Source: an uncultured Bacillales bacterium
Lineage (GTDB): Bacteria > Bacillota_I > Bacilli_A > RF39 > UBA660
Direction: 5' to 3'
Assembly (NCBI GenBank): GCA_947564265.1
Contig: CANOBK010000006.1
Span: 40,648-104,647 of the forward strand
DNA length: 64,000 nucleotides
The notes beneath the pieces are model-generated. The model saw only the letters and a program-made list of their open reading frames with translations, was not told the DNA's origin and made no database searches. Every line of letters begins with the position of its first letter. The stretch's first letter is position 1. This document shows positions 9,696 through 17,030 of this stretch, in pieces. The position numbers and the translations under genes were made by a program.

Positions 9696-10745
9696 TTATC
9701 CATTTGATTCATTTTCTTCCTTTTCTAATAAGGCTTTATGTAAAAGAATGACTGGCTGTACTCTACTATTTACTGTTGTTAAGTTGACTCCAGCTTTCAT
9801 ATTGGTAATCTCATACCTACCATTCGTTAGAGAATATAATAAGAATGGTTCTGTTCCTAAGCTTGGGATAGTTGGTAAAAATGTTCGATATTCATTCATA
9901 TCTAATGGTCGGATTTGAAGGATACTAATATCAAAATTTTTTCCTAAATCTGCTACCATTCTTTCACGATATTTCTCCATTATACTAGATAATTCTTTTG
10001 CTGTTTCCAAAGGACAATTCTGTTCTGTCTGACATTCAGCATTTATGTACGAATAGGAAGAATTTAATAAGAGTTTCAAATAAGCATTGGTTGAACTGCT
10101 ATTTTCCATTACTAAAAATGAATCCTCTCCTATTATGATTTCTTGCCCCTGTTGATAAGAAAGATAAGTATCTTCCATTTCTTCTAATACAACCTTTCCA
10201 TGATAATGATCTTTTACCGTAGCTGGCGTATCTTCACTTAACCAGATTCTAAGTTCATGAATTTCACTATTTCCAGGTAAAATCATTTCTGTACTTTCAT
10301 ACAAAACATAACCAGTACTTTCGATTTCTTTTAAACTTTTTGGTTCTAAATTGTCAAATTGGAAACGAATATAGTCGGTATATAGTTGCCGATCAATACA
10401 ACCGTCTTCATTCACCATAGCATCATCTTCCACTAAGCGAATTCGATATTTATAGGCACCACCAGAAACATTGGTAATACTAAACCGATATCCATCTTGT
10501 TCTCTCGCCTTCAAATCTGAAATAGGTTGCACATTAACTAAGGATAAAACATCTCCATTTCCCATTCCACGATCTACATAACTAAGTTCTAAATTACTGG
10601 TACCAAAATAATTAAATTCTGCTGTTTTGGACACTTGATTATTTAGGGCATAACTACTACCAAAAAAACAACACGTCAAAAGTAATGCACCCATAATAAT
10701 GATCCAAAATTCTTGTTTGGTATGTTTTCCAATCATTCGTTTCAC
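9696..10745 (-). CDS. Hypothetical secreted/membrane-anchored protein
   Basis: 349 aa; N-terminal signal-like segment (FWIIIMGALLLTCCFFGSSYA); directly downstream of the repeat surface-protein gene. Confidence 0.6.
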   Translation of the reverse strand: MKRMIGKHTKQEFWIIIMGALLLTCCFFGSSYALNNQVSKTAEFNYFGTSNLELSYVDRGMGNGDVLSLVNVQPISDLKAREQDGYRFSITNVSGGAYKYRIRLVEDDAMVNEDGCIDRQLYTDYIRFQFDNLEPKSLKEIESTGYVLYESTEMILPGNSEIHELRIWLSEDTPATVKDHYHGKVVLEEMEDTYLSYQQGQEIIIGEDSFLVMENSSSTNAYLKLLLNSSYSYINAECQTEQNCPLETAKELSSIMEKYRERMVADLGKNFDISILQIRPLDMNEYRTFLPTIPSLGTEPFLLYSLTNGRYEITNMKAGVNLTTVNSRVQPVILLHKALLEKEENESNG

Positions 10746-10828
10746 CCTCCTATTTTATTATAACACGCATAGAATAAAAATTTATCAAGAATTTACCAAA
10801 AAAAGAAGAACCTATAGTCCTTCTAAAA

Positions 10829-13800
10829 TTATAATTCTACGATTAACTCTCCTTTTACTACATTAGAATTAGAAGATTTTGTAGCAATCAATTCATCGAC
10901 TAAGCTGGAAGATTCCGCCGTATAATTAATGATAATTTTGGCACTCGCATCTGTTGCCGTACGTAAGAACATTTGCGTATAAGTAGTAATCTCACTAGCG
11001 TCCATATTGATTGTAGTTACCAGTTTTTCATTTCTATAGAACATATTTGAAGTATTGGTTACCTTTACAAAACTAAAACTACTTAAATCTACACTTTCTA
11101 ACACGTCACAGTGATAAAACATTTGATTCATATTTGTCACATTAGAAGTATTAAAATTACTTACATTTAAATTTGTAATAGCTACACATCCTTGAAACAT
11201 AGATCGCATTGTTTTTGCTTTTGAAGTAATAAAACTACTTAAATCTAACTCTGTTAAACTACTACAATTACAAAACATAAAACTCATATCTCTTACATTC
11301 TTTGTATCAAAGTTACTAACATTTAAATTTGTTAAGCCACTACAATTATAAAACATAGATATCATTGTTGTTACCTTTGGAGTAGTAAAACTACTTAGAT
11401 TTAACACAGTTAAACTACTACATCCATAGAACATATTACTCATATCGGTAACATTCTGGGTATCAAAGTTGCTCACATCTAAACTTGCTAATTTACTACA
11501 ATTATTGAATAAACCAAACATATCTGTGACATTTGAGGTATCAAAATGACTTACATCTAAAGTACTAATTCCTGAACAACCTTGGAATGTAGATTTTAGA
11601 TTCGTTACTTTTGGAGTATAGAATCCGCTTACGTCTAAGCTCGTCAATTTATTACAGTTATAGAACATGTAACCCATATCTGTTACATTTTGCATATCAA
11701 AACTATTTACGATCAAGCTTGTCAAAGAAGTACATTCCATAAACATTTGCCTCATATCTTCTACTTTTCCAGTACTAAAATTGCTTAAGTCTAAACTATT
11801 AAGATTCATACAATTGTCAAACATGGATCGCATTGTTGTTACATTCGATGTATCAAAATGACTCACATTTAAATTTTCTAAAGAACTACAAAAACCAAAC
11901 ATACCTGCCATATTAGTAACTACTGACGTATCAAAATTACTGATATCTAAACTTGACAAGGAATTACATTCCATAAACATTTGATTCATATCGAGCACTT
12001 TTTCAGTACGAAAGTTACTTAAATCCAAGCTTGTTAAAGAAGAACAATGGTGAAACATATAACTCATATCTGTGACATTTGAAGTATCAAAGTTTTTTAT
12101 ATCCAAATTGGTAAATGAACTACAACTAGTAAACATATTCCGCATATTTGTTACCTTTGCCGTCACAAAATTACTTAAATCTAACTCGGTTAATGAACTA
12201 CATTCCTCAAACATAAATGCCATATCCTCTACATTCGATGTATCAAAACTGCTAACATTTAGGTTTTGAAGTGATGTACAATGATCAAACATTGCATACA
12301 TATTTCTTACTTTTGATGTATCAAAATAACTTAAATCTAAGCTTATTAACGATTTACAACCGTCGAACATACTACGCATATTATTTACATTAGAAGTATC
12401 AAAATATTCTAATCCTTCAATGGTTTCTAGCTTACTAAAATTTTGGAATAAATATCTACTATTAGAATTCGCAACGATTCTTCCATCGCCTTGAATATAA
12501 GCGGTATAAGTATCTGAGGAACCATCATTTAAAACAAGTCTTCCCATAACACTACCATCTTGTGCATCTGATATATCCCAAGACTCTTGGGTGTTTAGCG
12601 GCTCATTCATATAATCCTGAAATACAATTTTTGTAATGGAATCTTTATACTTCCATAATTCTTTATTATAATCAGAGTCTACTGATTGTAAAAGTCGTAG
12701 TGGTCTAACATATATTTCTCCATTCATCGATTTGGCTAGTGTCAGTTTACTCCATTCTGCACGTAATAGAACATCATGCTCTGGCATTTGAAAAGAATTA
12801 TCATTCATTTGATAGGTATCTTTGGTTACAATTTTCCATCCTAGAAATTGATATCCTTTGCAACTTAGTTCTGTATCACTAATTTCTACGGTTTCATATA
12901 CCATTCTTTGTGTAGCCTCTGGAACATTATCTACCGTACAACTACTTGGAACATTTCCCTCATAACTTACCTGGTAATAGCTTTTCAAAATTGGAGTCTC
13001 CGTACTTGTAAATGTCTCTTCTACATCTTTTATTTTATAATTAATATTTTCTTCTTTATTTGTGGGGTAATAACCATCCTGATTTTGATATACTTTCTTT
13101 AAATTCACATCAATTGTTAAACTTGGCTTAGTTCCTGAAATTAGATTTTCTATTTTCCAAAAAACTTTTTTTTCTCCATTTTCCTCGATTAATTCGACAT
13201 CTCCTATCGAGGGGTTGATATTAGATACAGAGTCAATATCAAAATATTCACTATCTATAACATCTGTTAATACAAATTTATCATAAGTTACTGATACAAC
13301 AGAAGCTTCTAACAGTACTTCGTATAACGTTTGTTTATCCGAAAAGAATTGATGATCACTAATTTTCCTAATCGGATCTAAGATTGTTTCTCCCATTTCG
13401 TATTGAATTGCGTGTACTGTTAAATAGGGATATTTTTCCTTTAAGTAGGAATATTCCGTTACTTCATTTGGAACATCACTGGATGGATAACCATCTGTTA
13501 GAAATAAAACAATGCAATCCTTTTCTTCGTCTTTTTGATAGTCATTCAGTAAATTATCAACATTTACTAATGCTTGATAATAGCTCGTCCCATTACTGAT
13601 TGTTAAGGCATTTATCTTATCCGCAAGTTCTTCTTTATTATTTGTGAATTCAGAAACTATTTGAGAAGTAGATGCAAAGGTAATTAAAGCAACTTGGTCA
13701 TTTTGTTCTAATAATAAGTCATCTAATAAACGGATCGCATCTTGTTTTACCTGATCAAATGAGTTACTCCTCATAGAACTAGACGTATCTAAAACTAAAA

Positions 13801-14068
13801 TGACATCTCTATAGAGATTATTAGTCTGTCTGATAGTATCGATATCAAAGGTAATTCTTGCCTTGTTTTTTGCAATCCATTCCGCACTTTTATCTACATG
13901 AATACTTCCTGGTTCTTTAGAATTGTAATTTAATTCTTGTGAGTTAAACGATACTGTTCGAATAGGTTCCATTAATGCATATGAATTTAAAAATACTCCT
14001 AATAGCATCAATATCATTCCAAATACTAGTATTGAAATAGTAACTAATTTAAAGTTAAATTTTTTCAT
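10829..14068 (-). CDS. Large surface protein: N-terminal signal/anchor, VWA domain, Listeria-Bacteroides (Flg_new)-like repeat and BspA/DUF285-type 26-residue leucine-rich repeats
   Basis: VWA MIDAS motif VLDTSSSM and FLTDG; YQVSYEGN..GYQFLGWK; 17 full repeats of consensus MFxxCSSLTxLDxSNFDTSNVTDMxx. ATG at 14068 preferred over GTG at 14077 (AGGAG SD). Confidence 0.88.
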   Translation of the reverse strand: MKKFNFKLVTISILVFGMILMLLGVFLNSYALMEPIRTVSFNSQELNYNSKEPGSIHVDKSAEWIAKNKARITFDIDTIRQTNNLYRDVILVLDTSSSMRSNSFDQVKQDAIRLLDDLLLEQNDQVALITFASTSQIVSEFTNNKEELADKINALTISNGTSYYQALVNVDNLLNDYQKDEEKDCIVLFLTDGYPSSDVPNEVTEYSYLKEKYPYLTVHAIQYEMGETILDPIRKISDHQFFSDKQTLYEVLLEASVVSVTYDKFVLTDVIDSEYFDIDSVSNINPSIGDVELIEENGEKKVFWKIENLISGTKPSLTIDVNLKKVYQNQDGYYPTNKEENINYKIKDVEETFTSTETPILKSYYQVSYEGNVPSSCTVDNVPEATQRMVYETVEISDTELSCKGYQFLGWKIVTKDTYQMNDNSFQMPEHDVLLRAEWSKLTLAKSMNGEIYVRPLRLLQSVDSDYNKELWKYKDSITKIVFQDYMNEPLNTQESWDISDAQDGSVMGRLVLNDGSSDTYTAYIQGDGRIVANSNSRYLFQNFSKLETIEGLEYFDTSNVNNMRSMFDGCKSLISLDLSYFDTSKVRNMYAMFDHCTSLQNLNVSSFDTSNVEDMAFMFEECSSLTELDLSNFVTAKVTNMRNMFTSCSSFTNLDIKNFDTSNVTDMSYMFHHCSSLTSLDLSNFRTEKVLDMNQMFMECNSLSSLDISNFDTSVVTNMAGMFGFCSSLENLNVSHFDTSNVTTMRSMFDNCMNLNSLDLSNFSTGKVEDMRQMFMECTSLTSLIVNSFDMQNVTDMGYMFYNCNKLTSLDVSGFYTPKVTNLKSTFQGCSGISTLDVSHFDTSNVTDMFGLFNNCSKLASLDVSNFDTQNVTDMSNMFYGCSSLTVLNLSSFTTPKVTTMISMFYNCSGLTNLNVSNFDTKNVRDMSFMFCNCSSLTELDLSSFITSKAKTMRSMFQGCVAITNLNVSNFNTSNVTNMNQMFYHCDVLESVDLSSFSFVKVTNTSNMFYRNEKLVTTINMDASEITTYTQMFLRTATDASAKIIINYTAESSSLVDELIATKSSNSNVVKGELIVEL
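10990..12460 (-). repeat. Degenerate 78-bp (26-aa) tandem coding repeats
   Basis: 17 consecutive 26-residue units counted in the translation, from MFDGCKSLIS.. to MFYHCDVLES..; boundaries approximate. Confidence 0.85.
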
Positions 14069-14094
14069 AGGCCACAACTCCTATCTTATTTACA

Positions 14095-14123
14095 ATTATA
14101 CCCCCCCCCCAGGCTTTTTGCAA
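14095..14123 (-). promoter_or_regulatory. Sigma-A promoter with a G10 homopolymer in the -35/-10 spacer
   Basis: Minus strand TTGCAA (14123-14118), then AAAGCCT + GGGGGGGGGG (17 bp, 14117-14101), then TATAAT (14100-14095). Confidence 0.85.
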
Positions 14124-14176
14124 GCATTAAGTAACCAATAGTAAACAAAAAGTAAATTTTTTTAAGCTTATACAAC

Positions 14177-14208
14177 AAAAAATAGTATACTTTTACGTAT
14201 ACTATTTT
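14177..14208 (-). terminator. Rho-independent terminator after the 3D-domain gene
   Basis: Perfect inverted repeat aatagtatac (14181-14190) / gtatactatt (14197-14206) flanked by A/T runs. Confidence 0.7.
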
Positions 14209-16427: not shown

Positions 16428-17030
16428 TTAAGCTACCGAAACAATCCTGGAAGTTACATTCGGATGAGTATTGACATTATTTAAAGACAAATTGCATCCT
16501 TGAGAACCCTCAACTAAAACTTTTTCAGAACTGTTTAATACATCATGAAATTTTCGGTGATAGTTGGGATCTGCCTTGATATTTTTATATTCTTTGAAAA
16601 ATTTTAAATTTGGGTCTCTCATAATCTTTTCAGATAGACAGGGAGCACATCCTTTAAAGGTAGTACCTGTTTTAATTCTTCTCTTTTCTTCTTCGATATG
16701 TCTTGACTCAATGAGTGGAACTAGCGGGTGAACAATAATTTCTCTTCCTTCTAAAATATCTTTATTTTCCTCATACTCCTGTTCCAAAACATTCATATCA
16801 ATGATAGAACCAGGTCCAATAAAAAGCTTCGTTCTTGGATTTACTGCCGAAACCGGAATATTACGAAATAATCTTCTTCTTCCATTTTGTTCAAATGTAT
16901 GACCCGCATTTGGCATGCAATTGGAAACGGCTGCATCTACATCTTCATGAATCGCAAATTGTCCAATTACTTTTCCCTTTCCACAACTCCCTGCTTGTCC
17001 ATCAATAATCGCATAAACATTTTCCTTCAA
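16428..17030 (-). CDS. N-terminal half of a PurZ-like adenylosuccinate-synthetase-family protein
   Basis: IDGQAGSCGKGK, MPNAGHT, IGPGSII, GTTFKG, EKIMRD, VLVEGSQGCNLSLN, PNVTSR. TTG start with AGGAGG SD. Confidence 0.85.
   Translation of the reverse strand: MKENVYAIIDGQAGSCGKGKVIGQFAIHEDVDAAVSNCMPNAGHTFEQNGRRRLFRNIPVSAVNPRTKLFIGPGSIIDMNVLEQEYEENKDILEGREIIVHPLVPLIESRHIEEEKRRIKTGTTFKGCAPCLSEKIMRDPNLKFFKEYKNIKADPNYHRKFHDVLNSSEKVLVEGSQGCNLSLNNVNTHPNVTSRIVSVA

Follow-up and report, generated by a model that had tools for sequence, protein, structure and literature searches.

A poly-G tract in the promoter spacer of a VWA/PARCEL surface-protein gene, a candidate expression switch in an uncultured gut Bacilli bacterium

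The window analysed here, a 64-kb stretch of DNA, lies on contig 6 (126 kb) of the 1.675-Mb, 25-contig genome, about 90% complete, of an uncultured gut bacterium of the Bacilli. It contains genes for a rubrerythrin, a 240-aa protein, a large VWA/PARCEL repeat protein and a protein of about 345 aa, in an order that is kept in related species (JGI, NCBI and Logan assemblies). Between the 240-aa gene and the VWA/PARCEL gene, a run of G residues separates two promoter hexamers. The features of this region, in window coordinates, are as follows:

14173..14208, minus strand: terminator, intrinsic, with a 12-bp stem and a U run, at the end of the upstream 240-aa gene (-12.4 kcal/mol, z = -3.7)
14118..14123, minus strand: -35 hexamer TTGCAA, a 4/6 match to TTGACA with the TTG kept; orthologues have TTGACA at the equivalent position
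14111..14117, minus strand: AAAGCCT, the non-repeat part of the spacer, by direct reading
14101..14110, minus strand: G10 homopolymer (C10 on the plus strand), putative hypermutable tract; the spacer with the tract is 17 bp
14095..14100, minus strand: -10 hexamer TATAAT, flush with the G run and kept in orthologues
14078..14083, minus strand: ribosome-binding site TAGGAG, 9 nt 5' of the ATG
14066..14068, minus strand: ATG of the surface-protein gene, with 26 nt between the -10 hexamer and the ATG
10829..14068, minus strand: surface-protein gene, 1079 aa, by ORF translation and profile matches
10797..10824, minus strand: terminator-like hairpin (9-bp stem) and T7 directly 3' of the surface-protein stop codon, weak (z = -1.1)
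10757..10765, minus strand: extended -10 promoter TGTTATAAT (TGnTATAAT) belonging to the downstream gene of about 345-346 aa, by sequence reading

The gene behind the G run had been described, in a sequence-only reading of the window, as encoding a surface protein of about 1080 aa with a VWA domain and 26-residue repeats, and profile searches bore this description out. The 1079-aa product consists of an N-terminal hydrophobic anchor or signal, a VWA domain with a MIDAS, an InlB-B/List_Bact-like repeat and about 17-20 PARCEL repeats. The VWA domain covers residues 88-205 (PF13519, 8e-18; PF00092, 9e-16) and carries the MIDAS motif DxSxS as D94-T-S96-S-S98. The 26-residue PARCEL/DUF285 repeats matched PF03382 at 3e-122 (401.6 bits, cut-off 25) and TIGR02167 at 492 bits (cut-off 30), the latter in 17 stretches. 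A hydrophobic segment at residues 8-29 is followed by NSYA; a lipobox cysteine is absent from the N-terminus, and the SipW-type signal profile TIGR04088 gave no score on the protein. Classification of the product as a surface-type VWA/PARCEL protein is supported by these features, its export or membrane anchoring being putative.

The N-terminal part of the protein recurs elsewhere in the genome. A module of about 470 aa, comprising the anchor, an SF-S-LNY-EPGS-KSAEW motif, the VWA domain and the InlB-B-like repeat, is kept on contigs 1, 6, 16 and 21, and its C-terminal partners vary from PARCEL arrays of different length to List_Bact repeats and a GH5 cellulase. Public data contain more than 590 relatives, and the module seems to represent a modular family for surface display, as yet undescribed as such.

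Direct reading of the minus strand gave the order ...CTTAATGC-TTGCAA-AAAGCCT-GGGGGGGGGG-TATAAT-TGTAAATAAGA-TAGGAG-TTGTGGCCT-ATG. This confirmed in every element the arrangement claimed previously, namely TTGCAA and TATAAT held 17 bp apart by AAAGCCT and G10, with 26 nt from the -10 hexamer to the ATG, although the length of ten G's is that of one short-read MAG consensus and may be off by one. A scan for consensus promoters in this AT-rich DNA (31% GC) returned 36 sites against 40.5 expected, which is not significant, and the weight of the case therefore falls on tract statistics and conservation. Two other roles for the G run were dropped on sequence grounds: a G-quadruplex needs four G runs, and reiterative transcription needs a transcribed tract, but G10 lies upstream of the -10 box.

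Several observations suggest that these hexamers are probably the working promoter. The terminator at 14173..14208, which none of 200 shuffled sequences matched in folding, closes the upstream 240-aa gene, so that the surface-protein gene needs a promoter of its own, and the promoter scan found no other promoter-like site between this terminator and the ATG. Furthermore, the syntenic orthologues (56-61% identical) have TTGACA and TATAAT separated by 17 or 18 bp at the same distance to the ribosome site and ATG, and their spacers contain no G run and are of ordinary sequence. Conservation of the hexamers alongside a free spacer implies that the hexamers are under selection and that the G run is a lineage-specific gain. 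Thus, TTGCAA/TATAAT is very probably the only promoter of the surface-protein gene, and by the orthologue comparison the G tract is a later gain on a promoter that already existed. As to spacing, TTGACA-n-TATAAT occurs in the present genome 4 times with n=16, 17 times with n=17, 7 times with n=18 and twice with n=19, and the looser TTGNNN-n-TATAAT also peaks at n=17, with 184 sites against a background of about 65. A genome optimum of 17 bp points to G10 as the ON length and places the genome's two G11 promoters (19 and 20 bp, see below) off the optimum. It is therefore plausible that the assembly caught the ON state, the G10 spacer having the modal 17 bp and tract-less orthologues and paralogues having 17-18 bp.

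It had also been proposed that the downstream gene, listed as 9696..10745, switches together with the surface-protein gene, and this we could not support. The hairpin and T7 follow directly on the surface-protein stop codon, and the downstream gene has its own extended -10 promoter, TGTTATAAT, followed by a ribosome site, GGAGGG, and by an ATG in frame at 10736, which is most likely its start rather than the GTG at 10745 of the ORF list. The intervening hairpin and the separate promoter and ribosome site make co-transcription unlikely and probably leave the downstream gene outside the switch. Its conserved product of about 345-346 aa matched no Pfam or NCBIfam profile, yet the gene keeps its synteny with the VWA/PARCEL gene at every orthologous locus.

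The G10 tract is not a chance run. It is the sole G/C run of at least 8 in the 64-kb window, as had been remarked from the letters alone, where shuffled sequences would give 0.11. Across the whole genome, G/C runs number 284 at length 5, 22 at length 6 and 4 at length 7; there are none of 8-9, one of 10 and two of 11. All three runs of 10-11 stand flush with TATAAT and 7-9 nt 3' of a TTGnnA:

contig 6, present locus: TTGCAA-N7-G10-TATAAT, spacer 17 bp
contig 1, 243664-243674: TTGACA-AAAACTGT-G11-TATAAT, spacer 19 bp
contig 14, 41676-41686: TTGACA-AAAAAGTCT-G11-TATAAT, spacer 20 bp

The tract on contig 1 lies 5' of a 1157-aa VWA+DUF285 paralogue that is 45% identical to the present protein, and contig 14 ends 20 nt beyond its tract. 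Two more paralogue contig ends, on contigs 1 and 21, stop at ...AATTGGATTATAGATAGG, within the same kind of -10 region. The breaks of contigs 1 and 21 inside this -10 region make five the probable number of promoters of the G-tract type in the genome. Three other paralogues, one of them fused to a GH5 cellulase, have TTGACA-18 bp-TATAAT promoters without a tract.

The paralogues at the broken ends of contigs 1 and 21 provided a separate observation. Each of the two breaks off within the -10 region of what is probably a poly-G promoter, and the gene starts that follow (contig 1, about 250739-250796, L251 17739-17796; contig 21, about 16826-16931, L253) are near-identical and differ by one A in a poly-A run. 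The contig 21 version, ATGAGAGAAAAATTAAAAAAAATAGGG, has A8 and an open frame of 1025 aa; the contig 1 version has A7, which leads to a TAG stop at codon 8 and puts the remainder out of frame. The difference may reflect a second slippage switch, acting on translation, or else a pseudogene or an error in the consensus.

Good indirect evidence for length variation comes from homologous loci. In the strongest case, a congener (G003) carries a homologue of the surface-protein gene that is 50% identical over its full length and has the same architecture, and its tract reads G11, G9 and G10 in three independent assemblies, a comparison in which consensus noise may play some part since homopolymer length is error-prone in short-read consensus. 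The three assemblies show no other difference over the 2958-nt gene and 352 nt upstream. Cassettes with identical flanks also differ within single genomes: G9, G9 and G10 in G003, G10 and G11 in G028, G11 and G10 in G011, and anything from G8 to G11 among the six copies of one G017 cassette. Overall, the number of G's across identical cassettes within genomes ranges from G8 to G12, with copies one to three G's apart. Moreover, in human-gut metagenomes, unrelated loci of the same design vary from G8 to G12 between samples in which the flanks of a locus are identical. One related locus had G10 in all five assemblies that span it.

Searches for a second copy of the present locus itself returned none. 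An exact-pattern scan of metagenome contigs and exact-protein look-ups with the upstream gene and the surface protein yielded no second copy, and ERZ13410454, a foreign contig of near-identical sequence, breaks off 50 nt away from the tract. Comparison of the first 200 residues with fragmentary gene calls gave nothing above 55% identity, back-translated peptides found no close relatives in the genome collection, and a metagenome scan for the genome's other two tracts retrieved other organisms only. Lost mismatch repair was considered as a cause of tract instability and rejected: mutS is present and intact in the present genome and scored over the curated cut-off in 27 of the 29 genomes of the genus that were searched. 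With mutS intact, the instability would lie in the tract itself and not in a loss of repair.

We also analysed how widely this design occurs. The pattern G8+TATAAT was found in 8 of 61 genomes searched, comprising the present one, six other species of the same genus and one member of another family (Coprobacillus in the record); the reversed control pattern gave 0 matches in the same 61 genomes. In all matches TTGnnA is followed by 7-10 nt with an A-rich start, then by G8-12 and TATAAT, so that the spacer totals 17-20 bp, and an A-rich start with a (C/T)T end 5' of the G run, as at the present locus, is common to nearly all related cassettes. Five related genomes in which every G>=8 tract was listed, four congeners and one of another family, contain 17, 20, 5, 3 and 24 of them. 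Among 49 distinct G>=8 contexts that were read, nearly all lie in promoter spacers (TATAAT, TATACT or similar) and about 6 seem to be intragenic. The genes behind these promoters mostly belong to the same N-terminal VWA module family (four species); others encode prepilin-type, SipW-type secreted and List_Bact-repeat proteins and a KdsB-like cytidylyltransferase, the last with a G8 promoter tract in G017 (L026). In the same genome, a G10 at L198 (contig 7, about 26579) falls within what seems to be the N-terminal part of an ORF of sugar epimerase type (...VDWGGGYKVVTIDNLSTGRLENIPEQ), which may be a glycan gene of this congener with translational phase variation.

Beyond these genomes, a scan of the genome collection with the pattern CAAAA-N3-8-G8+-TATAAT identified at least 120 loci (L036-L155). 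Among the matches listed, a correctly placed TTG was present in 116 of 126 sites, mostly as a perfect TTGACA, and the taxa included gut Clostridia, Bacilli, Erysipelotrichaceae, Selenomonadaceae, Treponema, Fusobacterium, Streptobacillus and Saccharibacteria. The assembled poly-G spacers among the matches listed, here and in the metagenome collection (L255-L339), peak at 18-19 bp across phyla, compared with a sharp peak at 17 bp for the ordinary promoters of the present genome; either the assemblies captured most of these loci while low or OFF, or the optimum is a different one for G-tract spacers. It is very common for MAG contigs to break off at, or a few bases from, poly-G promoters. Such ends were recorded for G000 (contigs 1, 14 and 21), G045 (14, 32, 44, 51, 59 and 64), G011 (23, 42 and 186), G028 (contig 67), G003 (contigs 54, 63 and 79) and L249/L250, and one G011 contig ends in a G33 run that resembles a sequencing artefact. 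In these lineages, poly-G tracts systematically cause assemblies to break.

The arrangement has precedents in well-studied bacteria. In Neisseria meningitidis, porA (poly-G) and opc (poly-C) have a homopolymer between the -35 and -10 hexamers, one-base changes of which alter transcription, and there are several such loci per genome. As in loci of the porA and tp0126 type, the present tract is a homopolymer of at least about 8 nt between the two hexamers of a surface-protein gene, stands far above the run lengths of the genome's background and, at homologous loci, varies in length within otherwise identical sequence. However, the host here is an uncultured small-genome gut member of the Bacilli and not a Gram-negative pathogen, the product is a VWA/PARCEL repeat protein where PorA is a porin, and the G's are always on the sense strand and directly adjoin the -10 box. 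In Neisseria, switching was shown experimentally; at the present locus it is predicted by sequence comparison. In Mycoplasma hyorhinis, a poly-A tract occupies the spacer of the vlp lipoprotein genes; the principle is the same, but membership of the present locus in the vlp system was rejected, as its homopolymer consists of G's and it does not encode a lipoprotein of the Vlp type. The Bordetella fim2/fim3 promoters carry a C-stretch between an activator site and the -10 box.

In Treponema pallidum, tp0126, which encodes an OmpW homologue, has a poly-G tract between -35 and -10 with a transcription optimum at 17 nt (PMC7864442, citing Giacani 2015). The length of the tract varies between strains, and poly-G tracts also occur at tprE/G/J and tprL. 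The present locus has its poly-G in the same position as tp0126, and its spacer is likewise of 17 nt. Unlike the latter, tp0126, tprE/G/J and tprL are few loci of a spirochaete pathogen and encode beta-barrel outer-membrane proteins, and tp0126 is backed by reporters and fragment-length analysis where our case is comparative. Mycoplasma capricolum has simple-repeat contingency loci 5' of PARCEL (DUF285) lipoprotein genes (PMC2996958). The PARCEL genes of M. capricolum and M. agalactiae belong to the same repeat family (PARCEL/DUF285/TIGR02167) and likewise to low-GC, small-genome, host-associated organisms. However, the Mycoplasma tracts are poly-A, TA dinucleotides or, in M. agalactiae, coding-region poly-G, and not poly-G in a spacer; their products are lipoproteins, in contrast to a protein with an N-terminal anchor or signal and a VWA domain but no lipobox; and TGA is a stop codon in the present organism, unlike in Mycoplasma. 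In Helicobacter pylori, a T-tract upstream of the -35 of sabA gives graded and not binary output (PMC4081817). Here, as with fim2/fim3 and sabA, a homopolymer in or beside a promoter would tune an adhesin or fimbrial gene, although only the present tract is flush with the -10 box, and by analogy a sabA-like graded output would be an alternative mode for it. The working principle is thus already known and our result is incremental; what differs is the uncultured gut Bacilli host, the VWA-PARCEL architecture and a tract that strictly adjoins the -10 box.

On this basis we propose, with a probability of roughly three in four, that G10 is a contingency tract in the sigma-A-type promoter of the VWA/PARCEL gene and would act as a slippage-prone expression switch. 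Slipped-strand mispairing during replication would add or remove single G's, and each G gained or lost would shift the -35/-10 spacing by 1 bp and so change the binding of RNA polymerase. At G10, the spacing of 17 bp, the genome optimum, would put the promoter in an ON or high state; a spacing of 18-19 bp, with G11 to G12, or of at most 16 bp, with G9 or a shorter run, would leave it weakened or silent. The outcome would be a heritable and reversible population mixture of cells with and without the surface protein (ON, low or OFF). The same device would operate at one or more other paralogues in the genome, probably three or more, and independent switching at each locus would create combinatorial surface variation of the sort usually linked to host immunity, phage and heterogeneity of the gut niche. 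The sequences themselves show the anatomy, the outlier status of the tract, the conserved hexamers, the recurring cassette and the hypervariable length at a homologous locus of a congener; switching at the present locus, the length that corresponds to ON and a biological benefit are inferred. Since most related tract promoters were assembled at 18-19 bp and not at 17, the rule that relates length to expression may differ from the textbook one, and the effect may be that of a dimmer rather than a switch.

We weighed this proposal against three other explanations. The tract could be a fixed spacer element, a relic of cassette duplication that now acts as an ordinary spacer and in which length changes are too rare to matter, so that the promoter would be constitutive with its 17-bp spacing; position -14 would perhaps be occupied by a G of the run, like that of extended -10 promoters. 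Such constancy is consistent with the one length seen here in a single MAG consensus, with the tract sitting at the optimal 17 bp, with the presence of MutS and with the related locus that has G10 in all five spanning assemblies. It sits poorly with runs of 10-11 being extreme outliers in a genome with none of 8-9, and with identical cassettes that differ in G number both within genomes and between otherwise identical assemblies; moreover, orthologues work without any tract, which implies that the G's are not required for promoter function. We consider a fixed element improbable. A role of the TTGnnA-Gn-TATAAT cassette as a recombination junction, a patch of homology that re-pairs upstream regions with genes and changes length only secondarily, we hold to be less probable still. 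It draws on the same 2958-nt G003 gene standing behind two upstream regions that converge about 21 nt before the tract (L243 versus L240-L242), on a human-gut Bacilli relative in which a gene of identical DNA has two upstream alleles that split exactly at the tract (L244/245/247 versus L246/248) and on cassettes duplicated many times per genome. However, these joins could be assembly chimeras over a repeated cassette of 35-40 nt, no recombinase or inverted repeat was seen, and recombination leaves both the homopolymer nature and the exact placement in the spacer unexplained.

A sequencing or assembly artefact, either two-colour Illumina poly-G or a mis-join, was rejected. Some related contigs do end in long G runs, such as the G33 of G011, and several break at tracts, but the present G10 lies well within a 126-kb contig and is flanked by unique sequence, scores of assemblies made independently in different projects have the same exact placement, and the reversed control pattern had no match in the 61 genomes. 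Thus, the contingency tract remains our preferred reading. The analysis adds to it that all long G runs of the genome share one use, in promoter spacers, that comparison with orthologues shows a tract gained on an existing promoter, and that a locus of the same family in a congener supplies evidence of variability.

To our knowledge, phase variation by simple repeats has been documented almost only in cultured pathogens. More tentatively, and at somewhat worse than even odds, the locus may belong to a multi-locus poly-G 'phasome' of a genus of uncultured gut Bacilli, built on a cassette that is shared across phyla. By 'phasome' we mean at least 3-5 promoters in the present genome and up to 17-20 in congeners, with a portable TTGnnA-AAA..-Gn-TATAAT cassette repeatedly placed 5' of VWA/PARCEL adhesin-like, pilin-type and CMP-sugar genes and spread over gut Clostridia, Bacilli, Treponema, Fusobacteria and Saccharibacteria; this cassette might also be a recombination patch that re-pairs promoters and genes. 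If so, commensal anaerobes in general would use combinatorial surface variation driven by simple sequence repeats, which would then be no speciality of pathogens. The finding bears on strain-level heterogeneity, on escape from phage and immunity and on the reading of metagenome assemblies. In the MAGs concerned, contigs are often interrupted at such tracts, and a gene that is present need not be expressed. Altogether, the locus and those related to it suggest that a lineage of uncultured gut commensals has its own set of poly-G promoter switches on a large adhesin-like family.
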